Assembly: GCA_965267575.1 (NCBI GenBank)
Contig: OZ254086.1
Location: 608,001 to 672,000 of the forward strand
Reading direction: 5' to 3'
Length of the DNA stretch: 64,000 nucleotides
DNA from: Calditrichales bacterium
GTDB lineage: Bacteria; Calditrichota; Calditrichia; Calditrichales; J004
The notes beneath the pieces are model-generated. The model saw only the letters and a program-made list of their open reading frames with translations. It was not told where the DNA came from and made no database searches. Positions 47,131 through 60,191 of the stretch are shown one piece after another. Position numbers and translations under genes: made by a program. Position 1 is the stretch's first letter; each line of letters opens with the position of its first letter.

Positions 47131-47912
47131 GACAGACCATCCATGTTAAATGTGTCTCCGTCTTTCCAGACGGGAAATTTTTGGCGATACTCCTTCAGGC
47201 GTTGCGCCGAAAGAGTTACCGTTTTGACTTTCTCCGTATGGGCGTGCTCAAAAAGCGGCTCGCCCAGCGGGTCCAGCACCGCCGAATCACCGCGGTAGTA
47301 AATATCGTTACCATCGGTGCCGATGCGGTTTACGCCCACCACGTAGGCCTGGTTTTCTGCTGCCCGCGCCCGCAACAAAAGGCGCCAGTGGCTGGAACGT
47401 CTTTCCGGCCAGTTGGCTACAAAAATGGCCAGATCATACTTGTTGCCGTAATTGCGCAGCCAAACCGGAAAGCGCAGATCGTAGCAGACAAACGGGGCGA
47501 TTTTCCAGCCCTTGCAGTTAACCACCAAATGCGTTTTACCGGCACTGTATACTTTATGCTCTCCGGCCATCCGAAATAAATGACGCTTGTCATAAAAATC
47601 GAAATGGCCGTCCGGCCTTACCCAGAACATCCGGTTGAAATAACGCCCGTCGTCTTTAATGACAACACTACCAGTAATGTCGACGGAATATGCCGCCGCT
47701 TTATCCCGCATCCATTGCACGGTCCGCCCATTCGGAGAATCGGCCACGCGCTGAGGGTTCATAGTAAAGCCCGTGCTGAACATTTCCGGTAAAACAAGGA
47801 CATCGCCCCAATGGGTTACGCTGGCTAAAATCTGGTCAAAATGCGCCAGGTTGGCTTCCCTGTCTTCCCATCGCAACGCGGTTTGCACAACGGTTACTTT
47901 CAAATCCTGCAT
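47127..47912 (-). CDS. Nitrilase-family omega-amidase (YafV-like)
   Basis: LPEMF, YDKRHLF, VCYDLRFP, ARAAEN. Confidence 0.9.
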   Translation of the reverse strand: MQDLKVTVVQTALRWEDREANLAHFDQILASVTHWGDVLVLPEMFSTGFTMNPQRVADSPNGRTVQWMRDKAAAYSVDITGSVVIKDDGRYFNRMFWVRPDGHFDFYDKRHLFRMAGEHKVYSAGKTHLVVNCKGWKIAPFVCYDLRFPVWLRNYGNKYDLAIFVANWPERRSSHWRLLLRARAAENQAYVVGVNRIGTDGNDIYYRGDSAVLDPLGEPLFEHAHTEKVKTVTLSAQRLKEYRQKFPVWKDGDTFNMDGLS

Positions 47913-49039
47913 AAAACCTCCGCCGCCCTGTCAAGCGTCTCATCCTTTTTGGCAAAACAGAGGCGTATCACCTTATGGTCATCCCTGTTGCGGTAAAAGA
48001 CCGATGTGGGAATGGTGGCAATCTTGTGTTCCCGCGTAAGTCTTTCACAAAATGCACGATCGTTTTCGTCGCTGATGCCGGCATAGCTGAGCAATTGGAA
48101 ATAAGTTCCGGCACAGGGTAAAACCTTAAAGCGCGATTGCTGCAGCTGCCCGGCGATACGGTCGCGCTTTTGCTGGTAAAAGTGCGCCAGTTCGAGGTAG
48201 TGGTTTTCGTCTTTCAGCATTTCCGCGTAAGCGTGCTGGCTTGGCGCGTGTACGGAAAAAACTATGAACTGGTGAATTTTGCGCAGTTCTTTGGTCAATT
48301 CAACAGGGGCCAAGCAGTAGCCTACTTTCCAGCCGGTGGCATGGAACGTTTTGCCGAACGAGCTGATCACGAAACTGCGCTCAGCCAGCTCCGGGTAACG
48401 TGCCAGGCTGAGGTGTTTCTGCCCGTCAAAGACGATGTGTTCATAAACCTCGTCGGCGATCAGCACAATATTTGTATTGCGGGTGATCGCAATCAGTTGC
48501 CGGATGTCGCTATCGCCCAGCACGGCGCCTGCCGGATTGTGCGGATTGTTTAGAATAATGGCCCGTGTTTTTGGTGAGATTGCCTTTTTCAGGGCATCCC
48601 AATCAATGCCGTAGCGCGGCGGCATAAGCGGCACGGTTACCACTTTGCCAGCGCTGTATTCAACCGTAGGAATATAGATGTCATACCACGGCTCAAAAAC
48701 AATCACTTCATCTCCCGGATGCACGGTTGCCGTTATGGCGGCATACAGTGCTTCGGTTGCGCCCGATGTTACGGTGACTTCAGTTTCCATGTCGTAACGC
48801 GCGCCGTACAGCTTTTCCGTTTTAATGGCAATTTGCTCGCGCAGTTGAGGAATGCCCGGCATGGGCGCGTATTGATTGTGCCCTTCCCTGATGGCCGCCG
48901 AAATCAACTCGCTCATCCGCCGATTTATGTCAAAATCGGGGAAGCCCTGGGAGAGATTCAAAGCATCGTGCTTGTGGGACAGCGCCGTCATAACGGCAAA
49001 AATGCTGGTTTGCAGGTTCGGCTGTTTGGATGTGATCAT
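47900..49039 (-). CDS. PLP-dependent methionine/aromatic aminotransferase (YbdL-like)
   Basis: NLSQGFPDF, NPHNP, DEVYEH, SSFGKTFHATGWK. Confidence 0.92.
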   Translation of the reverse strand: MITSKQPNLQTSIFAVMTALSHKHDALNLSQGFPDFDINRRMSELISAAIREGHNQYAPMPGIPQLREQIAIKTEKLYGARYDMETEVTVTSGATEALYAAITATVHPGDEVIVFEPWYDIYIPTVEYSAGKVVTVPLMPPRYGIDWDALKKAISPKTRAIILNNPHNPAGAVLGDSDIRQLIAITRNTNIVLIADEVYEHIVFDGQKHLSLARYPELAERSFVISSFGKTFHATGWKVGYCLAPVELTKELRKIHQFIVFSVHAPSQHAYAEMLKDENHYLELAHFYQQKRDRIAGQLQQSRFKVLPCAGTYFQLLSYAGISDENDRAFCERLTREHKIATIPTSVFYRNRDDHKVIRLCFAKKDETLDRAAEVLCRI

Positions 49040-49045
49040 AAGGAT

Positions 49046-49077
49046 GTGCTATGGTGTTTAGGTGTTAGTGTGTTAAA
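49046..49077. repeat. Orphan octamer tandem array, GTGTTA family (4 units)
   Basis: gtgctatg gtgtttag gtgttagt gtgttaaa. Confidence 0.75.
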
Positions 49078-49099
49078 GTTGTGCCCGGCAAATATAACA

Positions 49100-49135
49100 A
49101 TTCTTGATCATGATCATGCTCGTGATCATGCTCTT
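49100..49135. repeat. Hexamer tandem array (GMTCNT)
   Basis: attctt gatcat gatcat gctcgt gatcat gctctt. Confidence 0.75.
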
Positions 49136-49152: not shown

Positions 49153-49181
49153 GATCCCGGCGCGGTTGCCGGGATGACAGG
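49153..49181. repeat. REP-like palindrome, copy 1
   Basis: GATCCCGGCGC-ggtt-GCCGGGATGACAGG; 25/29 nt identical to 53129-53157. Confidence 0.85.
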
Positions 49182-51768: not shown

Positions 51769-52914
51769 TTATTTGACAATATCCGCAACCACTTTATTTA
51801 CGATTTCGCCGTCCTTTACAACACAGGCGCCTTTAGTCACTTCATCATCCCAGGTGACGCCTTCGTTGCCAAAGATATTCTGGAACAGATTGGTAATATT
51901 TTTGGAATACATCTGGCTGGAGTGAACGGGAAGCTTTGTGGCCAGGTTTACCGCGCCAATGACGGTTACACCGTGCTTCTCAACCGTCTTATCTTTTTCC
52001 GTGATAGCGGTGTTGCCGCCCTGTTCCGAGGCGATGTCCACGATGACCGATCCCGGTTTCATCTGTTGCAGCATTTCTTCCGTGATCAGGATGGGCGCTG
52101 CCTTGCCAAATACCTGTGCCGTGGTAATCACCACATCAATTTTGGGCAGGCGCCCGCCGATGGCCTCCTGCTCTTTATTCAGAAATTCATCGCTCATTTC
52201 CTTGGCATAACCGCCTTCGGTTTCGGCGTCTTCGGGCATTTCCATTTCAACAAATCGCGCGCCCAGCGACTCCACCTGTTCTTTAACAGCTGCGCGCGGG
52301 TCGAATGCCTCTACTTTGGCGCCCAGCCTTTTGGAGGTAGCGATGGCCTGCAATCCCGCAACACCGGCGCCCAGCACAAGCACGTTGGCCGGTGAAACGG
52401 TTCCCGCGGCCGTCATCAGCATCGGGAACATCTTTGGCAGGTGGTCCGCTGCGATGAGCACCGCCTTATACCCGGCAATGGTTGCCATGGAGCTTAACGC
52501 ATCCATGCTTTGGGCGCGGGTAATACGCGGCACAAAACCCATATCGAAAGCGGTTACCTTCCGGCCGGTAAGCTTTTTGACATTGTCCGCATTTTGCGTG
52601 GGATGCAAAAATGTAATCAGGATAGCGCCCTCTTTCAGCGCTTCCGCTTCGTGCTTGCCCAGCGTGCTGTTCTCCTGCGGCGGCGCTACTTTCAGCACAA
52701 CGTCACATTCGGCAAAAAGCTTTTTGGCATCGGAGACAATTTCCGCGCCGGCCTTTTTGTACTGGTCGTCGCCGAATCCGGAAGCGACGCCGGCACCGCT
52801 TTCCAGCAGCACCTGGTTGTTGTTCTCTTTGCCTGTTAAAACCTTGATCATGGATGGGACGACGGCAACCCGTGTCTCATTCGGAGCAATCTCGCGAGGT
52901 ATGCCAATCTTCAT
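51769..52914 (-). CDS. pntAA: NAD(P)+ transhydrogenase alpha subunit part 1 (soluble dI)
   Basis: PRITRAQSMDALSS, GAGVAGLQAI, GGYAKE. Confidence 0.96.
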   Translation of the reverse strand: MKIGIPREIAPNETRVAVVPSMIKVLTGKENNNQVLLESGAGVASGFGDDQYKKAGAEIVSDAKKLFAECDVVLKVAPPQENSTLGKHEAEALKEGAILITFLHPTQNADNVKKLTGRKVTAFDMGFVPRITRAQSMDALSSMATIAGYKAVLIAADHLPKMFPMLMTAAGTVSPANVLVLGAGVAGLQAIATSKRLGAKVEAFDPRAAVKEQVESLGARFVEMEMPEDAETEGGYAKEMSDEFLNKEQEAIGGRLPKIDVVITTAQVFGKAAPILITEEMLQQMKPGSVIVDIASEQGGNTAITEKDKTVEKHGVTVIGAVNLATKLPVHSSQMYSKNITNLFQNIFGNEGVTWDDEVTKGACVVKDGEIVNKVVADIVK

Positions 52915-53020
52915 GTGGCCTCCCTTAATACGTCCGTGGTTAAATTAGAGTACACTACAATGCGTAGTTTACGAAACATAAACCGTCATTTTCAAGGAAG
53001 ATTTGATTTCTTTTTAAGAG

Positions 53021-53091
53021 GCAGAATGGAATTGGGCAGAATAGGTATTAAGAATAGTTGAATTATGGAATTATTGAAGCGGTGAGTTTCG
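53021..53091. repeat. Degenerate GAAT-core tandem array
   Basis: gcagaat at 53021 and 53036, then period-8 units gaatagtt gaattatg gaattatt gaagcggt gagtttcg. Confidence 0.55.
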
Positions 53092-53128
53092 TGGGGCGTC
53101 CGAGCTGTCTTGATGGTTTTAGTCGGTG

Positions 53129-53157
53129 GATCCCGGCGCACAGGCCGGGATGACAGG
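53129..53157. repeat. REP-like palindrome, copy 2
   Basis: GATCCCGGCGC-acag-GCCGGGATGACAGG. Confidence 0.85.
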
Positions 53158-53165
53158 TAAGTGCC

Positions 53166-53205
53166 TAAGACGTCCAGACTCCAGGACACCATGACTTCAA
53201 GACCT
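53166..53205. repeat. Octamer array, GAC family (5 units)
   Basis: taagacgt ccagactc caggacac catgactt caagacct. Confidence 0.85.
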
Positions 53206-53210
53206 TATTC

Positions 53211-55169
53211 TTAAACACTGTTCCTGATCGCCTCCACCGTCGCCGGGTTTTCAAGGCTGCTGACATCGCCGGTGGGCTGGCCGAGGTAGGCGGCGCGGAT
53301 AAGGCGGCGCATCACCTTGGCGTTGCGGGTTTTGGGCAGGGCGGTAGTAAAACGTATCTCTTTGGGCTTCAGCGCTTTGCCCAGGCCGTCCGTAACGCGA
53401 TCCATTAATGCCTTGCGCAGGTCTTCCGTAATTTCCACGCCTTCCTTCAGCACGCAAAAGCCCACAACGGCGTTGTCCTTTTTAGGGTCGGGGACGGCTA
53501 TGGCAGCGGATTCCACCACGGAGGGATGGGCGTTCAGCAGCGCTTCCACTTCCGCCGGGCCCAGCCTTTTGCCGGCCACTTTGATCGTGTCATCGCTGCG
53601 GCCCAGGATGTACCACAAGCCGTCCTTGTCGATGGCGGCAAAGTCGCCGTGCAGCCATACGTTGTCAAAACGGCTCCAGTAAGTATCGATGTAGCGCTGC
53701 TCGTCTTTCCAGAAACCGCGGGTCATACCAATCCACGGTTGGCGGATCACCAGCTCGCCGACGGCGCCGCGCAAGGGTTTGCCATTCTCATCCACCACAT
53801 CGGCGGCCATACCCGGCACCGGCCCGGAAAAGGCGCAGGGTTTCAGCGGTTTGAAAAAATTGCCGCAAACAATACCGCCGCTGATCTCCGTACCACCGGA
53901 GTAATTCAAAATAGGCTTGCGCTTTTCCAGCACATTCTCAAACAGCCACATCCACGATTCCGGATCCCAGGGGCTGCCGGTGCTGCCCACCATACGCAGG
54001 CTGCCCAGGTCGTGTTTGCGCAAAATGTCGCTGCCCTTGTCCTTCAACGCGCGTATCAGCGTGGGCGAAACACCGAGATGCGTCACCTTGTGTTTTTCGA
54101 TAAGCTGCCACAGGCGGCTGTGGTGCGGGTGATCCGGAGCGCCGTCATAAAACAGCATCGATGCGCCAATCGACAGCGAGCCGAACACTTCCCACGGCCC
54201 CATCATCCAGCCCATATCGGTCATCCAGTACATCACCTCGCCGCGTTTCAGGTCCATGCAGTGGTACATGTCCTGTGCGCCTTTAATCGGAAATCCGCAG
54301 TGGGTGTGGACGGCGCCCTTGGGCTTGCCGGTGGTGCCGCTGGTATAAATAATCATGCAGACATCTTCGGCGGAGGTTTTCTCCGTTTCGGCCCGGTCGC
54401 TTTGTCCGGGCACCAGCTTATTCCAAAAATGGTCACGGTTATTTGTCATCGGGCAATCTTCACGTCCGGCGCGACGCACAACAACCTGGTGTTTCACTGT
54501 GGGACAATCGGCGAGCGCTTCATCTGCAGTTTCCTTCATCGGCACCAGCTTGCCGCGACGAAAGGCACCGTCGGCGGAGAACAACGCTTTGGCCCCGGCA
54601 TCATTCAGCCGCGTGGCAATCGCCGAGGCGCCATAGCCACTGAAAAGGGGCAAAATGATTCCGCCAATTTTAATAATAGCCAAAAAGGCAATGGCGAGCT
54701 CGGGAATCATCGGCATGTACAAGCCCACCGCGTCGCCTTTTTTCAGGCCCAGTTCACGCAGGGCGTTGGCGCAGCGGCATACATCGCGATGCAATTCACG
54801 GTAAGTCCATGTTTTGCTGTTGCCCTCTTCACTTTCGTAGCGCAGGGCCACGGTATCAGCTACCTCGGTTTGCTGCCATTTGTCCAGAAGGTTGTGCACG
54901 ATGTTCATGCGGCCGCCGACACACCACTCAGGCCGCTGAATGCCAATTTTCAGATCGACGATTTTTTTATAGGGCGTGTAAAATTCGATGTCCAGGTCTT
55001 TCAATGCCGCATCCCAGAACCAGGCGATATCATCGGTGCTGCGGCGCATCAGTTCGTCATAATCCTTTACGCCATTATTTTCCATAAAGCGCTGCAGATT
55101 GCTTTCCACTATCCACCGTTTATTGGGTTGCCACACGATTTTTTGTCCAAATGGAAAATTTTGGGGCAT
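53211..55169 (-). CDS. Acyl-CoA synthetase (acetate/acetoacetate-CoA ligase family)
   Basis: Start set to MPQNFPF (AAGGA RBS); YTSGTTGKPKG, SGGTE, GRSDD, LPKTRNAK. Confidence 0.9.
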   Translation of the reverse strand: MPQNFPFGQKIVWQPNKRWIVESNLQRFMENNGVKDYDELMRRSTDDIAWFWDAALKDLDIEFYTPYKKIVDLKIGIQRPEWCVGGRMNIVHNLLDKWQQTEVADTVALRYESEEGNSKTWTYRELHRDVCRCANALRELGLKKGDAVGLYMPMIPELAIAFLAIIKIGGIILPLFSGYGASAIATRLNDAGAKALFSADGAFRRGKLVPMKETADEALADCPTVKHQVVVRRAGREDCPMTNNRDHFWNKLVPGQSDRAETEKTSAEDVCMIIYTSGTTGKPKGAVHTHCGFPIKGAQDMYHCMDLKRGEVMYWMTDMGWMMGPWEVFGSLSIGASMLFYDGAPDHPHHSRLWQLIEKHKVTHLGVSPTLIRALKDKGSDILRKHDLGSLRMVGSTGSPWDPESWMWLFENVLEKRKPILNYSGGTEISGGIVCGNFFKPLKPCAFSGPVPGMAADVVDENGKPLRGAVGELVIRQPWIGMTRGFWKDEQRYIDTYWSRFDNVWLHGDFAAIDKDGLWYILGRSDDTIKVAGKRLGPAEVEALLNAHPSVVESAAIAVPDPKKDNAVVGFCVLKEGVEITEDLRKALMDRVTDGLGKALKPKEIRFTTALPKTRNAKVMRRLIRAAYLGQPTGDVSSLENPATVEAIRNSV

Positions 55170-55187
55170 GAGTGATCCTTTGTTTTC

Positions 55188-55259
55188 GGTCTGGAAGTCT
55201 CGAGGTCGGGGAGTCCTGAGGTCGAGTAGTACTGAAGTCTTTTTGTCCGCCAGTCGCCA
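55188..55259. repeat. Octamer array, GAC family in inverted (GTC) orientation (9 units)
   Basis: ggtctgga agtctcga ggtcgggg agtcctga ggtcgagt agtactga agtctttt tgtccgcc agtcgcca. Confidence 0.85.
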
Positions 55260-55260
55260 T

Positions 55261-55300
55261 CTCGGCTTCAAAACCACAAGACTTCATGACCTCATGACTT
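55261..55300. repeat. Octamer array, GAC family (5 units, first two degenerate)
   Basis: ctcggctt caaaacca caagactt catgacct catgactt. Confidence 0.75.
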
Positions 55301-55716
55301 TAAACTATTCTTCCGAAATTTTCATAGCTATAATTAGTATCGCTTACAAAATCATTATTTTTTAAATAATTGATCAATCCCAGTATTTTCGTGCTGCATA
55401 ATTCAGCTTTTTCCTTTAGCCGCACAAATTCGTCTTGGCTGATATATTCACAATCCAAAACGATATAAAGAAGACTTCTAAACTCCATAAGGGAACCATC
55501 AGCAATAGTTAAAAACCGTTTAAACTCTTTATCGGAATAACGCCCAAAGCCTTCTCCAATATTGGCCATGACAGATATCGCCGCTCTGCGAACCTGATCG
55601 GATAAAGCAAAATCTGTTTTCAACTTTGTGCTATTGTTAATCGAATAAATATCTTGGACCAACTCTCTTGCGAGTTGCCAGCATTTCAGCTCTTCAAAGT
55701 TTTTAACTGTCGCCAT
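55300..55716 (-). CDS. Four helix bundle protein (23S rRNA IVP / TIGR02436-like family)
   Basis: FEELKCWQ, LSDQVRRAAISVMANIGEGFGR, EFKRFL.IA.GSL.E signature; AT-rich. Confidence 0.92.
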   Translation of the reverse strand: MATVKNFEELKCWQLARELVQDIYSINNSTKLKTDFALSDQVRRAAISVMANIGEGFGRYSDKEFKRFLTIADGSLMEFRSLLYIVLDCEYISQDEFVRLKEKAELCSTKILGLINYLKNNDFVSDTNYSYENFGRIV

Positions 55717-55736
55717 TTAAGACCCCCAAATGTAAT

Positions 55737-55784
55737 CCTGACTGCAAGACTCCAAGACCTCCGGACTTCAAGACTTCTCGACAG
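55737..55784. repeat. Octamer array, GAC family (6 units)
   Basis: cctgactg caagactc caagacct ccggactt caagactt ctcgacag. Confidence 0.88.
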
Positions 55785-55786
55785 TT

Positions 55787-56407
55787 TCACGGCCTATACG
55801 GCTTACGAATCAGCTTAAATCTCTCACCTAATTTCGTGTACTCAGCACCGGCCAGGCGACCGATGGGACGCAGCTTACCAGTATCGATGCGGCCGTTTTC
55901 CAGCAGCTCATCGGCCACATGGAACATGACAATCTCACCGATTACCAGGAAGCCGCCACCGGCCTGGGGCTTACCTATTTCAACGATTTGATACAGCTTG
56001 CACTCAAAATGTATCGGCGACTCTTTGACCAACGGCGCTTTGACGACCTCAGCCTTTACCGGCGTTAAGCCGGATTGCTCAAACTCGTCAATCTCCGGGG
56101 GAAACTCCGTGGCGCAATCGTTCATTGGCTCGGCAATCTCTTCCGTTACGATGTTGACGACGAACTCACCGGTGGCTTCAATATTGCTCAGTGTGTCCTT
56201 ACGTTCACCGTCCGTGCCGCGCCGCGTGGGGCAAAAACAAATCGTCGGCGGATCGGAGGTGATGCCGGTAAAAAAGGAGAAGGGCGCCAGGTTGTATTGC
56301 CCATTTTTGGAAACAGTAGAAACGAAGGCGATCGGTCGCGGCAAAATGCTGCCGATCATCAGTTTATAATTTTCTTTATAGGTTTGTTTTTTGGGATCTA
56401 TTATCAT
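55787..56407 (-). CDS. Flavin reductase-like FMN-binding protein
   Basis: Start set to MIIDPKK; PRPIAFVST, NLAPFSFF, KDTLSNIEATGEFVVN, GRLAG. Confidence 0.88.
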   Translation of the reverse strand: MIIDPKKQTYKENYKLMIGSILPRPIAFVSTVSKNGQYNLAPFSFFTGITSDPPTICFCPTRRGTDGERKDTLSNIEATGEFVVNIVTEEIAEPMNDCATEFPPEIDEFEQSGLTPVKAEVVKAPLVKESPIHFECKLYQIVEIGKPQAGGGFLVIGEIVMFHVADELLENGRIDTGKLRPIGRLAGAEYTKLGERFKLIRKPYRP

Positions 56408-56435
56408 TTTGTGCTTACCATTCAGTTCCACAGAA

Positions 56436-57593
56436 TTAGTCTTCGAGCCAGCTGTAGGGGTAATTTCCATCCTCCACTTCTTCGGCGTCTTTGGCAATAT
56501 TTAAGGGCCGGAATGTATCCAGCATCACCGCGTATTCATCGGTTTCCTTCGCGCCGATGGAGCCTTCATATTTTCCTGGATGCGGCCCGTGCGGCAACCC
56601 CGCGGGGTGTATGGTAATCGAGCCTTCGGAAACGCCTTTGCGGCTCATGAAATCGCCTTCCCAGTAGTAGAGCACCTCTTCGCTGTCCACGTTGCTGTGG
56701 GCGTAGGGCGCGGGGATCGATTTCTCGTGGTAGTCAAACAATCGCGGTACAAAGGAGCAAATGACAAAGCCGGGACCGGCAAAGGTTTGATGCACGGGTG
56801 GCGGCTGGTGAATCTTGCCCGTTATGGGCATAAAATCCCGGATGTTAAAAATCCAGGGATAGTAGAAGCCATCCCAGCCAACGACGTCGCAGGGGTTGTG
56901 GGCCAGCACATATTCCTGGATGCCCCGTTGCACACGCACCATGATGCGGAAGTCGCCTTTTTCATCTTTGGCAGCAGCAAAATCCGGCGTGCGGATATCG
57001 CGCTCGCAAAACGGGGCGTGCTCCATCAACTGGCCGAACTTGTTGAAATAACGCTTGGGCGGCGCCACCGGTCCAAAGGATTCGATGATCAGAAAGCGCG
57101 TGTCGCCGGTCTGGTAATGCAGCTTGTACAACGCCCCGCCGGGGATCATGATGTAGTCGCCTTCATGAAATGGCAACTGCCCGAACTGGCTTTCCAGCAT
57201 ACCCTTGCCTTTGTCCACAAAAATCACCTCGTCGGCGTGGGCGTTGCGGTAATAAAAGTCGGCTTCGTCCGCGGGCCGGCAGGTGGACATAATGACATCC
57301 TTGTTGTAGGCCAGAATGCGGCGCCCGCTGACCCAGTTGCCCTTGGGGTCAAATTTGTGCGTCTCCAAATGACGGTGGCGGTGGGTTTCATCGCTGCCGG
57401 GTAATATATGCACCGGGTGCAGCGGTCCCACTTTTTTCACCCGCGTTGGCGGATAAATATGGTACATATTGGAATAGGTGTCGGAAAAGCCCTCACGGCT
57501 CACCAGCTCTTCATAACGCAGATTATTTTTTTCATCGCGATGCTGCGTATGCCGTTTCTGCGGCACATCGCCCAGTTTTTTGTAGTAAGGCAT
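56436..57593 (-). CDS. hmgA: Homogentisate 1,2-dioxygenase
   Basis: DVVGWDG, HQPPPVHQTF, PYAHSNVDSEEVLYY, PHGPHPG, AVMLDTF. Confidence 0.93.
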   Translation of the reverse strand: MPYYKKLGDVPQKRHTQHRDEKNNLRYEELVSREGFSDTYSNMYHIYPPTRVKKVGPLHPVHILPGSDETHRHRHLETHKFDPKGNWVSGRRILAYNKDVIMSTCRPADEADFYYRNAHADEVIFVDKGKGMLESQFGQLPFHEGDYIMIPGGALYKLHYQTGDTRFLIIESFGPVAPPKRYFNKFGQLMEHAPFCERDIRTPDFAAAKDEKGDFRIMVRVQRGIQEYVLAHNPCDVVGWDGFYYPWIFNIRDFMPITGKIHQPPPVHQTFAGPGFVICSFVPRLFDYHEKSIPAPYAHSNVDSEEVLYYWEGDFMSRKGVSEGSITIHPAGLPHGPHPGKYEGSIGAKETDEYAVMLDTFRPLNIAKDAEEVEDGNYPYSWLED

Positions 57594-57604
57594 GTCCTCT
57601 CCTC

Positions 57605-57640
57605 GTGTTAGGGTACTAGTGTGCTAAAGTGTTAATGTGC
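57605..57640. repeat. Octamer array, GTGTTA family (left arm)
   Basis: gtgttagg gtactagt gtgctaaa gtgttaat gtgc. Confidence 0.85.
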
Positions 57641-57647
57641 GCGGAGA

Positions 57648-58076
57648 TTATTGCAACTCGTTTGCTTCGCTTGCATCATAAAACACTTCAACGTCACTTA
57701 CACCGTCACTTTTACGATTTTTTAAATATTTTAATAGTCCGAGAATACGATTTCGGCAAAGGTCAATTTCATCAGAGAGCGATTCAAAATCGGCATCCGT
57801 TAATATTTTTAAATCTAAAACGATATAGGCCTGGCTTTTTAATTCTGATAATGAACTCTGCGCCATATTGAGGAAGTGAATAAATTCCTTGACGTTGTAG
57901 CGTGCAAAACCCTCCGCGATATTGCTCATAGCGGAAACAGCGGCTCGCCGCATTTGATCCGCCAGTGAATACTTCCTGTCAGTCATTAGTGGTTCAGTGA
58001 TCATGTATATTCGTTTTGTTAAAAACCTACAGCCTTGCCAGGCCTTTAAATCTTCGAAACGCTTAACTATTGCCAA
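57648..58076 (-). CDS. Four helix bundle protein (23S rRNA IVP / TIGR02436-like family)
   Basis: FEDLKAWQ, LADQMRRAAVSAMSNIAEGFAR, EFIHFL. AGGAGG spacing favours the TTG start at 58076 (alternative ATG 58079). AT-rich. Confidence 0.92.
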   Translation of the reverse strand: MAIVKRFEDLKAWQGCRFLTKRIYMITEPLMTDRKYSLADQMRRAAVSAMSNIAEGFARYNVKEFIHFLNMAQSSLSELKSQAYIVLDLKILTDADFESLSDEIDLCRNRILGLLKYLKNRKSDGVSDVEVFYDASEANELQ

Positions 58077-58091
58077 CATAGCCTCCTATAT

Positions 58092-58135
58092 GCACACTAA
58101 CACATTAACACTCTAACACTATAACACAATAGCAC
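58092..58135. repeat. Octamer array, TAACAC family (right arm, inverted relative to 57605-57640)
   Basis: gcac actaacac attaacac tctaacac tataacac aatagcac. Confidence 0.9.
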
Positions 58136-58139
58136 TTTC

Positions 58140-59066
58140 TCACCTGCTCACCTTCTGCTCCAGTAGGCCCAGGCCTTCGATTTCAAGTGTGATGGTGTCG
58201 CCGGGTTCAAGCCAGCCGTTAGTGTTTTCGGGGCGCAGCTCCAAAATGCAGCCGCTGCCCACGGTGCCGGAACCGAGAAGGTCTCCGGGGTAAAGGTCCG
58301 CGTCCTGTGAGGCACGGGCAATCATTTCACCAAAAGAATAGTGTATTTCCGACCAGTTGCCGTCGGAGATCAGCTGACCGTTTTTACGGGCGGTCATGCG
58401 TAAATCGTAGCCTTTGTTTTTTTCCTTTCCTTTTAATTCATCGGCAGTCACAAGAAATGGCCCCAGACCCGTGGCAAAATCCTTGCCCTTAGCCGGACCC
58501 AAACCCACGCGCATTTCGCGGCGTTGCAGATCGCGTGCGGACCAGTCATTCAAAACGCAGTAGCCCGCAATATAATTGGCAGATTCTCCAGCTTTAATGT
58601 TGCGACCTCGCTTTCCAATGATACAGCCAATCTCAAGCTCAAAATCCAACTCCGCGGTTGCCTGCGGCTTTTTGATAGTCGCCTTGTGGCCATAAAGCGC
58701 ATGGGGATTTGAAAAATAGAAAACCGGTATCTCGTACCATTCGGGCACTACGTCAAGGTCACGCAAAGCCCGGGCCGTTTTTACATGGCGCTCGAAAGCA
58801 TAGAAGTCGCGAAAATTGGCCGGACGCAGGAGCGGTGGCAGGAAATGAATCTCGCTTTCATTGAGAAGCGCGTCTGCCACAGGCTGCGTTTGCAATTCTT
58901 CAAGTTCCTGAAAACCGGCCGGCCAGTCACGCAAAGCGTCGTCCACACTAAAAGGAACGGCCTGCCGGCCGGCAGCCAGTTTCATCGCATCGTATAGCTG
59001 CCCGCCGATCGCCAATCCAAGACGTACTTCCGCGTAATCGGGCAGCGCATAGTTAAATAACTTCAT
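58140..59066 (-). CDS. Fumarylacetoacetate hydrolase family protein
   Basis: FRDFYAFERH, LDFELE, NDWSARDLQ, KGKDF, GSGTVG. Confidence 0.92.
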   Translation of the reverse strand: MKLFNYALPDYAEVRLGLAIGGQLYDAMKLAAGRQAVPFSVDDALRDWPAGFQELEELQTQPVADALLNESEIHFLPPLLRPANFRDFYAFERHVKTARALRDLDVVPEWYEIPVFYFSNPHALYGHKATIKKPQATAELDFELEIGCIIGKRGRNIKAGESANYIAGYCVLNDWSARDLQRREMRVGLGPAKGKDFATGLGPFLVTADELKGKEKNKGYDLRMTARKNGQLISDGNWSEIHYSFGEMIARASQDADLYPGDLLGSGTVGSGCILELRPENTNGWLEPGDTITLEIEGLGLLEQKVSR

Positions 59067-59099
59067 CTGCTGTCCTCATTTATCGGGTAATGGAATTGT

Positions 59100-60191
59100 C
59101 TAGAGGTTCCCGCGGCGTTCCTGCTCGCGCTCGATCGACTCAAACAGGGCCTTGAAATTGCCCTTGCCAAATCCGGACGCGCCTTTGCGCTGGATGATCT
59201 CATAAAACAGAGTCGGGCGATCCTGGATGGGTTTAGTGAATATCTGCAGCAGGTAGCCGAATTGATCCTTGTCCACCAAAATGCCCAGCTTGGCGAGATC
59301 TTCTATGTTCTCGTCGATTTCGGGCACCCGTTCCGGCAGTTCGTCATAGTAGGTCCTGGGAACTTCCAGAAACTCGACGCCATTTTCGGCCAGGCGGCCA
59401 ACGGTGTGAACAATATTGTTGGTGTCAAAAGCGATATGCTGAATACCCGGTCCGCCGTAAAACTCTACAAATTCCTCGATTTGCGATTTGCGAAGACCGG
59501 CGGCAGGACGGTTTATCGGCATCTTCAAACGCTCGTTTTCGTTGGCCACAACAATGGAACGCAGGGCCGAATATTTTGTGGAAATGTCCTTGTCATCGGC
59601 GCTCCAGAAGCGGTGCCAGCCAAACACGTGCTCGTACCACTCTGCCGTTTTCTGCATTTGGTTTTCCGGTTGGTTGCCAACAAAGTGATCCACAAAATTT
59701 AGGCCGACAGGATTAATATTCAGAGGGCTGGTGCGTGGCTCATAGCCGGGCATGAAAGCGCCTTTGTAATTATCACGCTGTACAAAGCTGTGCACCGTAT
59801 CTCCGTACGTTTTGATCGTCGCGATGATCACTTCGCCGTTTTCGTCTTTCAAGCGCTTTGGCTCCTGTACGGACTCAGCACCGCGTTCGGTAACATATTT
59901 CCAGGCGCCTTCCGCGTTATTGGTCCAGAAAGCCACATCGCGTACGCCGTCGCCGTGCTTTACCAGATGCTCGTTCAGCGGGGAATCGTCTTTATAGGGG
60001 GTACTTAAAACAATCCGTACTTTATTTTGCTGAAGCATGTAAGACGCATGATCACGGTTGCCCGTCTCAAGACCGGAATAAGCTTTCAGTTCAAATCCGA
60101 ACTGCTGCATATAGTAAAAAGCGGACTGACGGGCATTGCCCACAATGAGGTGGATATGATCCGTCCCCATAAATTCAAAATCTGCCTTCAT
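59100..60191 (-). CDS. hppD: 4-hydroxyphenylpyruvate dioxygenase
   Basis: HGDGV, DHFVGN, GIQHIAF, LLQIFT, GFGKGNFKALFESIEREQ. Confidence 0.96.
   Translation of the reverse strand: MKADFEFMGTDHIHLIVGNARQSAFYYMQQFGFELKAYSGLETGNRDHASYMLQQNKVRIVLSTPYKDDSPLNEHLVKHGDGVRDVAFWTNNAEGAWKYVTERGAESVQEPKRLKDENGEVIIATIKTYGDTVHSFVQRDNYKGAFMPGYEPRTSPLNINPVGLNFVDHFVGNQPENQMQKTAEWYEHVFGWHRFWSADDKDISTKYSALRSIVVANENERLKMPINRPAAGLRKSQIEEFVEFYGGPGIQHIAFDTNNIVHTVGRLAENGVEFLEVPRTYYDELPERVPEIDENIEDLAKLGILVDKDQFGYLLQIFTKPIQDRPTLFYEIIQRKGASGFGKGNFKALFESIEREQERRGNL

Follow-up and report, generated by a model that had tools for sequence, protein, structure and literature searches.

Proteins of the PF05635/TIGR02436 family are widespread and make up a very large group with solved structures, and we know of no function for them outside diversity-generating retroelements (DGRs). 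To our knowledge, the intervening sequences (IVSs) of ribosomal RNA (rRNA), recognized for decades, likewise have no known origin or way of moving, and the short tandem repeats reported from intergenic regions in several phyla have no protein assigned to them. In cyanobacteria, the STRR heptamers are dispersed short tandem repeats. Here, we describe a locus and its genome that tie the protein family, the rRNA IVSs, and the intergenic repeats together in testable form, with four proteins, four repeat families, and clean empty sites. The locus lies in a 64,000-nt stretch of a Calditrichales bacterium, a member of Calditrichota (assembly GCA_965267575.1, contig OZ254086.1, positions 608,001 to 672,000 of the forward strand; hereafter the window), where two PF05635 genes, each enclosed by inverted arrays of short tandem repeats, are inserted as cassettes into a metabolic operon for the breakdown of tyrosine.

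The published systems closest to these cassettes are summarized below from excerpts of the papers cited. The rRNA IVSs, known since work cited from 1990, resemble the cassettes in that those of Leptospira and Coxiella carry the same protein family between complementary, stem-forming ends and are AT-rich relative to the host (PMC4990558). Excision of a 23S IVS by RNase III within its 28-bp terminal stem has been demonstrated experimentally in another species, and three tandem heptamers, whose number varies between strains, lie upstream of the IVS open reading frame (ORF) in one species; the Xanthomonas campestris S23p structure is a homopentamer (PMC4990558). Unlike rRNA IVSs, the cassettes sit in an mRNA operon, their arms are arrays of short tandem units rather than a single inverted repeat, and they are accompanied by a large population of gene-less arrays; moreover, excision by RNase III has been demonstrated for rRNA IVSs only. 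The same four-helix-bundle fold is found in Avd (4DWL, 8UB7), the pentamer of which is contacted by the Avd-binding RNA element of the DGR RNA (bioRxiv 10.1101/2023.10.23.563531). The proteins described here differ from Avd in having no reverse transcriptase partner in the genome, in scoring below the Avd cut-off, and in the lack of template and variable repeats.

A further likeness concerns the systems formed by repetitive extragenic palindromic (REP) doublets (REPINs) and REP-associated tyrosine transposases (RAYTs), whose RAYTs are believed to be required for the copying or maintenance of REPINs (PMC3116915, Bertels and Rainey 2011). As in REPIN-RAYT systems, a gene present in single copy has repeats of its own family on its flanks, inverted gene-less doublets are dispersed in extragenic space, several families coexist in one genome, each with its own gene, and genomes that lack the gene also lack the repeats (PMC3116915). 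The cassettes differ in encoding a four-helix bundle instead of an HUH/Y1 transposase domain, in having tandem units of 6-9 nt instead of a palindrome of about 20 nt, and in that no transposition intermediate is known. Among intergenic repeats, the TAACTGA repeats of Beggiatoaceae lie upstream of start codons, a mobile binding protein having been suggested for them (PMC4679880), while paired tandem octamers and heptamers of Geobacter metallireducens are listed as sites of an unidentified regulator (PMC2700814). Both resemble the present arrays in being intergenic, lineage-specific units of 7-8 nt, often upstream of starts or in inverted pairs; both were attributed to an unidentified binding protein, to which the present work adds a PF05635 gene with matching arms. 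Neither "S23" nor "four helix" occurs in the texts of PMC4679880 and PMC2700814, the supplementary figures of the latter being outside the text search. A full-text literature search found no paper tying PF05635 genes to flanking tandem arrays in general, the excerpt of PMC4990558 noting heptamers in one IVS.

Two PF05635 cassettes inside an hppD-fah-hmgA operon

Four PF05635 genes are present in the genome, each lying between inverted arrays of a single family that differs from gene to gene: GAC/GTC octamers (IVP1), AACAC/GTGTT octamers (IVP2), GAATTGG heptamers, and GATCAT hexamers. IVP1 and IVP2 interrupt the operon of the window. An earlier reading made from the sequence alone had described them as two paralogous four-helix-bundle genes, and the profile searches agree: PF05635 matched IVP1 at E 5.4e-34 (117.1 bits) and IVP2 at E 6.8e-31 (107.1 bits) against a cut-off of 33.8, TIGR02436 gave 109.1 and 100.9 bits (cut-off 24), and the two proteins share 46% identity. 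At an E-value limit of 0.001, neither protein had any Pfam match besides PF05635, and an HUH/Y1 transposase domain was thus absent from both. The coordinates proposed earlier stand for IVP1, and the end of IVP2 moves from 58076 to the ATG at 58079. Hand counts of about 36% and 39% GC were accurate, the computed values being 35.7% for IVP1 and 39.4% for IVP2, compared with 50.8-56.5% for the five operon neighbours. The absence of transposase, integrase, and reverse transcriptase was also borne out by a Pfam scan of 9 ORFs of the region, and RVT_1 had zero matches across the whole closed, 98% complete genome of 4.73 Mb. The features, in window coordinates, are as follows.

53211-60191, minus strand: operon of hppD, fah, hmgA, flavin reductase, and acyl-CoA synthetase, all five confirmed by Pfam
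59100-60191, minus strand: hppD (Pfam)
58140-59066, minus strand: fah (Pfam), stop codon 58140-58142
58093-58160, minus strand: 5' arm of cassette 2, octamers of the (GTGTTAnn) type, of which about 6 are clear and a further 2-3 degenerate (direct reading, Tandem Repeats Finder (TRF), lag-8)
57648-58079, minus strand: IVP2, PF05635/TIGR02436 four-helix-bundle gene, 143 aa, with an AGGAGG Shine-Dalgarno before the ATG
57603-57647, minus strand: 3' arm of cassette 2, (nnTAACAC) x5, ending at the hmgA Shine-Dalgarno (direct reading)
56436-57593, minus strand: hmgA (Pfam), ATG at 57593
55787-56497, minus strand: flavin reductase (Pfam), stop codon 55787-55789
55740-55786, minus strand: 5' arm of cassette 1, (nnnnAGTC) x6, directly after the flavin reductase stop (direct reading, TRF, lag-8)
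55300-55716, minus strand: IVP1, PF05635/TIGR02436 four-helix-bundle gene, 138 aa (profile match, fold)
55272-55299, minus strand: short array of the G type, sense AGTCATGA GGTCATGA AGTCTTGT, immediately behind the IVP1 stop (direct reading, TRF)
55178-55257, minus strand: 3' arm of cassette 1, (GACnnnnn), about 9 units, ending about 15 nt before the synthetase ATG (direct reading, TRF)
53211-55170, minus strand: AMP-binding acyl-CoA synthetase (Pfam), ATG at 55170 as the most likely start

Read along the sense strand, the fah stop is followed by about six (GTGTTAnn) units, AGGAGG and IVP2, five (nnTAACAC) units, the Shine-Dalgarno and hmgA, and the flavin reductase stop, after which come six (nnnnAGTC) units, IVP1, three (AGTCnnnn) units, a 20-nt gap, about nine (GACnnnnn) units, the synthetase, five (nGTCnnnn) units, and a REP-like hairpin. 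The 5' arm of cassette 2 begins at the fah stop codon, its outer units overlapping the final fah codons. The synthetase most likely starts at ATG 55170 rather than at GTG 55277 of the ORF list, and the downstream array of IVP1 therefore falls in the spacer. That the spacers on both sides of each gene are largely filled with octamer arrays, including inverted ones, as in the earlier reading, was confirmed by direct reading of the sequence; TRF and a lag-8 autocorrelation scan detect most of the arrays. TRF called 55188-55239, 55280-55298, 55740-55777, and 58093-58136, and at score 30 it misses the arrays at 53166-53210 and 57603-57647; the lag-8 scan flags 53168-53207 (genome 661168-661207), 55736-55784, and 58084-58160 (genome 666084-666160). 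Taken alone, the downstream arms (about 55187-55257 and 57603-57647) are the weakest part, with a lag-8 value of 20/32 that equals, and does not exceed, the control 95th percentile. No promoter or terminator signal inside the cassettes stood above shuffles, and a search of 52900-58300 for known RNA families gave one sub-threshold chance match only.

Empty sites in relatives and pairing of cognate arms

The closest hmgA relatives, at 70% identity, are Calditrichaceae metagenome-assembled genomes (MAGs). In one relative (L029), the gene order is the same, the gap between fah and hmgA is 48 nt, that between the matches to flavin reductase and synthetase is about 30 nt, and neither gene nor arrays are present; in two further loci (L011 and L016), the fah-hmgA spacer measures 8-11 nt. 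The same two spacers in the present genome span 546 nt (fah-hmgA) and 616 nt (flavin reductase-synthetase). The search for empty sites in orthologous hmg operons thus found them without gene and without arrays, at a divergence too great for alignment at the junction. The proposal that gene and cognate arrays form a unit is upheld by the single family around each gene, by these short, array-free spacers, and by the recurrence of the same build elsewhere, including helix 45 of 23S rRNA. In addition, the hppD-hmgA spacer of an Acidobacteriota MAG (G041, L025 5883-6004) is taken up by a period-8 array 120 nt long, and the same kind of spacer in the same operon has thus been occupied independently in another phylum.

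For the four cassettes of the genome, cognate arm-arm duplexes were computed at -60.3 (cassette 1), -47.1 (cassette 2), -31.7, and -29.0 kcal/mol, compared with -8.7 to -28.1 kcal/mol for swapped arms; the cognate energies lie 4.8-5.6 standard deviations beyond shuffles (z -4.8 for cassette 1 and -5.6 for cassette 2). In the predicted minimum-energy and centroid folds of both cassettes, the upstream array pairs with the downstream array around the ORF, and the array at 55272-55299 is predicted to pair locally with the inner units of the C-type array that follows. Complementary ends that would form an ORF-enclosing stem, as in an IVS, are therefore present in both cassettes according to predicted folds and duplex energies. 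Both cassettes lie between protein-coding genes of one operon, not in helix 25 or 45 of 23S rRNA, where insertion defines a classical IVS. The genome encodes RNase III, and looping-out of the cassettes from the mRNA by arm pairing is plausible on these models.

Recurrence of the cassette and its occurrence in 23S rRNA

A PF05635 gene was found in 40 of the 41 Calditrichia genomes searched, the present one (G000) included. After removal of three rows beforehand (L086, in the same place as L111; L118, a partial domain in a larger ORF; and L091, a broken gene), 83 IVP ORFs were analysed in Calditrichia, of which 4 were cut by contig ends and 79 had full flanks. A tandem array above the control 95th percentile was present upstream in 56/79 and downstream in 56/79, on either side in 65/79, and on both in 47/79, so the short-period flanking arrays foreseen by the sequence-only reading occur around most PF05635 genes of this class. 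Flank complementarity exceeded the control 95th percentile in 60/79 and the 99th in 43/79. The array period was mostly 7, then 8, within a range of 6, 7, 8, and 9. Complementary flanks also occurred around 22 of 24 genes in one genome each of Acidobacteriota, Desulfosediminicola, Balneola, and Planctomycetales. Among relatives, IVP genes lie inside a G-then-C array pair in 44 cases against 9, and they are co-directional with the upstream neighbour in 60:6 and with the downstream neighbour in 60:7.

In two relatives (G011 and G019), one IVP gene is located inside helix 45 of 23S rRNA, flanked by about 4.5 (CAAGGnn) units and five (CCTTGnn) units, while both 23S genes of the present genome have a short native helix 45, which represents the empty site. 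The array-ORF-array build at helix 45 therefore indicates that operon cassettes and classical ORF-bearing IVSs are one element type. This is a real and general element that is absent from the literature searched, within which the earlier suggestion of an undescribed module holds.

Two observations on the relatives may be added. At one locus (L116, G011:C1:2540000-2541500), an AT-rich stretch is present in two direct copies with the IVP gene in between, and behind each copy comes a repeat recurring with spacers of about 36 nt in a CRISPR-like manner, so that the gene seemingly sits in the duplicated leader of a repeat-spacer array. Furthermore, about a dozen PF05635 matches in the relatives' drafts are no farther than about 600 nt from the beginning of a contig; assemblies apparently stop at or close to cassettes, and draft genomes may thereby hide cassettes and arrays.

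Gene-less arrays and their relation to resident genes

The arrays are not exclusive to the PF05635 genes, as had been supposed: 164 period-8 arrays accompany the four genes. Genome-wide, lag 8 yields 164 loci and lag 7 yields 31, compared with 3-9 at lags 4, 5, 10, 11, 13, and 14; exact 4-mers recurring four times at 8-nt spacing are found at 64 loci, and at 1-20 for other periods. Most of the lag-8 arrays (141/164) are mainly intergenic, judged by a crude ORF map covering 93% of the genome. They comprise 5-18 units, at least 8 in 34/164, and together with the periods of 6-9 this does not fit the earlier idea of one octamer per subunit of a pentamer. An unbiased 5-mer catalogue is headed at period 8 by AACAC (47 loci) and AATTC/ATTCA (16-23), at period 7 by AATTA/AATTC (10-11 loci), and at period 6 by GATCA (16); the arms of IVP2, IVP3, and IVP4 are built from these top families. 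The IVP1 arms belong to the looser GAC/GTC family, which totals 28 arrays, its best 5-mer (ACTTC) ranking sixth at period 8 with 7 loci. The PF05635 genes thus have the own flanking repeats and the dispersed gene-less extragenic copies that characterize REPIN-RAYT systems, and the proteins of both cassettes in the operon lack the HUH/Y1 transposase domain.

The families of gene-less arrays follow those of the resident genes. A repeated 6-mer is shared with resident arms by 77/136 gene-less arrays in the present genome, 12/13 in a 240-kb sample of G011, 14/18 in a 160-kb sample of the Acidobacteriota MAG G041, and 2/3 in G003; the same match against the arms of other genomes gives 0-37, the value of 37 being that of the present genome against G011, which also has an AACAC-type arm. 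Lag-8 density is 3.5 per 100 kb in the present genome and 6.7 in G011. In contrast, the only relative without the gene (G002, 96% complete) contains no arrays at lags 5, 7, 8, 10, or 11 in 255 kb, and a complete chromosome without the gene (G045) contains none in 240 kb. Across 55 genomes, of which about 13 kb around hmgA was sampled in each and which include related and hence non-independent ones, the 26 IVP-positive genomes hold 43 arrays in 14 loci and the 29 IVP-negative ones hold 6 (Fisher p 0.013); those six look like chance or low complexity.

The arrays obey a handedness rule. G/T-rich arrays adjoin the left-hand gene in 61:10 and C/A-rich arrays the right-hand gene in 54:17, adjacent pairs have the G array before the C array in 19 cases, against 1 in the reverse order, and the rule is identical on both strands. 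For host genes, a C/A-rich array therefore precedes the start and a G/T-rich array follows the stop; within 25 nt of the gene boundary, 47/71 C/A-rich arrays lie at starts and 55/71 G/T-rich arrays at stops. A REP-like hairpin and a GATCAT array are often present between paired arrays. Long gene-less doublets occur in G041 (L256 15215-15474; L257 7144-7425 and 9638-9772), where up to 17 octamers of a G-type array run straight into their reverse complement, in units of that genome's IVP arms. Dense mosaics of GTGAY/GTGACGG-type octamers, interleaved with other hairpin repeats, occupy positions 4,290,100-4,292,300 and 4,251,500-4,259,200 of the present genome.

Fold of the protein and selection

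The predicted IVP1 model (predicted local distance difference test, pLDDT, 87.4) has four long helices. Its best Foldseek matches are 2GSC (TM score 0.89-0.92, target-normalized; root-mean-square deviation 1.5-1.6) and 2RLD, followed by Avd 4DWL (TM score 0.84, target-normalized), so the model has the four-helix-bundle fold of the solved PF05635 members 2GSC and 2RLD, and the structural relation of the family to Avd, as stated in the earlier reading, is supported. Membership in Avd itself is not indicated, as the Avd model NF033474 matched IVP2 at E 4.6e-4 with 20.5 bits against a cut-off of 80. The ratio of nonsynonymous to synonymous substitution rates (dN/dS) is 0.07-0.17 in five of eight close pairs (dS being unsaturated in those five), one of which is the rRNA-borne pair; the sequence comparison thus indicates purifying selection on the IVP proteins. 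Protein and unit are both related in 24 pairs, among which 16 have flanking genes in common on one side or both, 7 on neither side, and 1 was judged on one side only, the flanks compared for shared context often being only about 300 nt. Most cassettes have thus stayed at their site during inheritance, whereas a smaller number have changed place together with their unit.

Interpretation

The explanation that we favour, as probable though far from secure, is an IVS-type cassette with gene-less derivatives, organized like REPIN-RAYT systems. In a cassette, a tandem array rich in G/T precedes the ribosome-binding site and the PF05635 ORF, and a reverse-complement, C/A-rich array follows; the whole went in as a single unit, in the sense direction, precisely at the junction where one operon gene stops and the next one starts. 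A second layer is formed by some 200 gene-less arrays of the same few unit families in other intergenic spacers. The likeness to REPIN-RAYT systems lies in a single-copy protein gene, under purifying selection and mostly inherited in place, with its own repeats at its flanks and dispersed gene-less copies. Within this reading, we infer how binding, cleavage or RNA processing, and spreading might proceed: a pentameric Avd-like protein would bind the repeat unit of its own family; in the operon transcript, pairing of the arms would produce a long stem with interruptions, which RNase III might cut as in rRNA IVSs, releasing the IVP message while the host cistrons stay usable; and at the DNA level, the protein might be required for copying or keeping the arrays. 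More tentatively, and with less than even confidence, we suggest that PF05635 proteins may be sequence-specific repeat-binding factors, each keeping or somehow spreading its own tandem-array family, as a transposase-free counterpart of REPIN-RAYT systems.

Several observations weigh against this interpretation. The expectation that protein relatedness would follow the repeat consensus held in part: protein identity and shared repeat units are correlated (Mantel r 0.26, with 0/999 permutations as high), but the correlation is largely carried by syntenic, vertically inherited pairs, and the heptamer GAATTGG is common to proteins merely 17-21% identical, which argues against a simple one-protein-one-unit code. 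An octamer family, GTGAY, has no resident PF05635 gene. The protein carries no known nuclease or recombinase motif, and no DNA-mobility enzyme was identified. The 55-genome comparison is narrow in its sampling, and the IVP-free genomes sampled in depth number two. Against a form that acts through RNA only stand three points: arm mismatches in sense RNA are of the G.U type in 75 and of the A.C type in 81 cases (60 cassettes, p 0.69), which gives no hint that RNA pairing has been selected for outside the shared cores; roughly one in two gene-less array pairs of this genome combines arms of different families and is unable to pair; and the array rule, being symmetric between strands, cannot be assigned to RNA rather than DNA.

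The arrays might instead be regulatory sites in untranslated regions (UTRs) of host genes, with each IVP as a trans-acting, autoregulated post-transcriptional regulator that has no mobility. The tight placement of C/A-rich arrays at starts and G/T-rich arrays at stops, the match between array families and resident genes, and the purifying selection on the proteins would all suit such a regulon, and comparable proposals appear in the excerpts of the papers on the TAACTGA repeats upstream of start codons (PMC4679880) and on the Geobacter octamers and heptamers, called sites of an "unidentified global regulator" (PMC2700814). We nevertheless regard it as unlikely, because it leaves the origin of more than 100 arrays of one unit at unrelated spacers unexplained, because the same gene-plus-arms unit sits inside 23S rRNA, where mRNA regulation is inapplicable, and because gene and arms are jointly absent from orthologous operons; nor does the strand-symmetric array rule point to RNA over DNA.

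A still less probable view holds that the arrays are generic intergenic features born by slippage, at which IVP genes insert or are retained with no functional tie. It would account for arrays outnumbering genes 164 to 4, for spacers that are mosaics of several repeat kinds, and for the existence of mixed-family array pairs, but not for the observation that each of the four resident genes has two arms of a single family, a different one for every gene. Moreover, arrays are missing from the two IVP-free genomes sampled in depth and rare in 29 others, the families are genome-specific and match the resident arms, and in helix 45 of 23S rRNA the arms arrive with the gene. A DGR remnant, in which Avd genes bereft of their reverse transcriptase would be left with decayed template and variable repeats, could draw on the Avd-like fold (4DWL, TM score 0.84, target-normalized) and on the faint NF033474 match of IVP2. 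It was rejected as scarcely credible, since that match falls far below its cut-off and RVT_1 is absent genome-wide; in addition, the repeats are tandem units of 6-9 nt without a template/variable pair, and the operon neighbours are metabolic enzymes. Nor do the cassettes carry the enzyme expected of an insertion sequence or transposon, no transposase or integrase domain occurring in the 9 ORFs of the region.

If PF05635 proteins do bind the repeats and keep or spread them, this would explain the origin of ORF-bearing rRNA IVSs, the function of a very large protein family, and the heptamer and octamer intergenic arrays of cyanobacteria, Beggiatoaceae, Geobacter, and others. A true link between protein and repeat would also provide a direct binding assay for the PF05635 family, define a novel kind of insertable element able to reside in operons while leaving them unbroken, and offer a possible source of sequence-programmable nucleic-acid-binding modules.

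Other features of the window

Beyond the two cassettes, the following repeats were recorded in the window.

53166-53210, minus strand: G-type array of the GAC/GTC family, sense GGTCTTGA AGTCATGG TGTCCTGG AGTCTGGA CGTCTTAG, directly after the synthetase stop (direct reading)
53128-53158, no strand assigned: REP-like hairpin (GATCCCGGCGC...GCCGGGATGACAGG), a dispersed repeat distinct from the arrays and frequently adjoining them
49040-49135, minus strand: gene-less arrays; TAACAC-type octamers abut the start codon of the gene at 47900-49039, preceded by a GATCAT hexamer array

The array at 53166-53210 is a gene-less array and not a cassette arm. A 66-aa ORF at 52992-53192 (minus strand), which has no Pfam match, overlaps this array and the hairpin downstream of the synthetase and is most likely no gene. 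The arrays at 49040-49135, outside 53166-58135, belong to the families of IVP2 and IVP4, with no IVP gene at that place. The last seven codons of fah (58140-58160) contain outer units of the cassette 2 array; since the protein is as long as its orthologues, the C-terminal tail, which is poorly conserved, either borders on the array or has been overwritten by it. A second copy of the hairpin lies at 49153-49180; the repeat is GC-rich, ends in GGGATGAC(A), and recurs in many spacers of the genome, often between a G-type and a C-type array.

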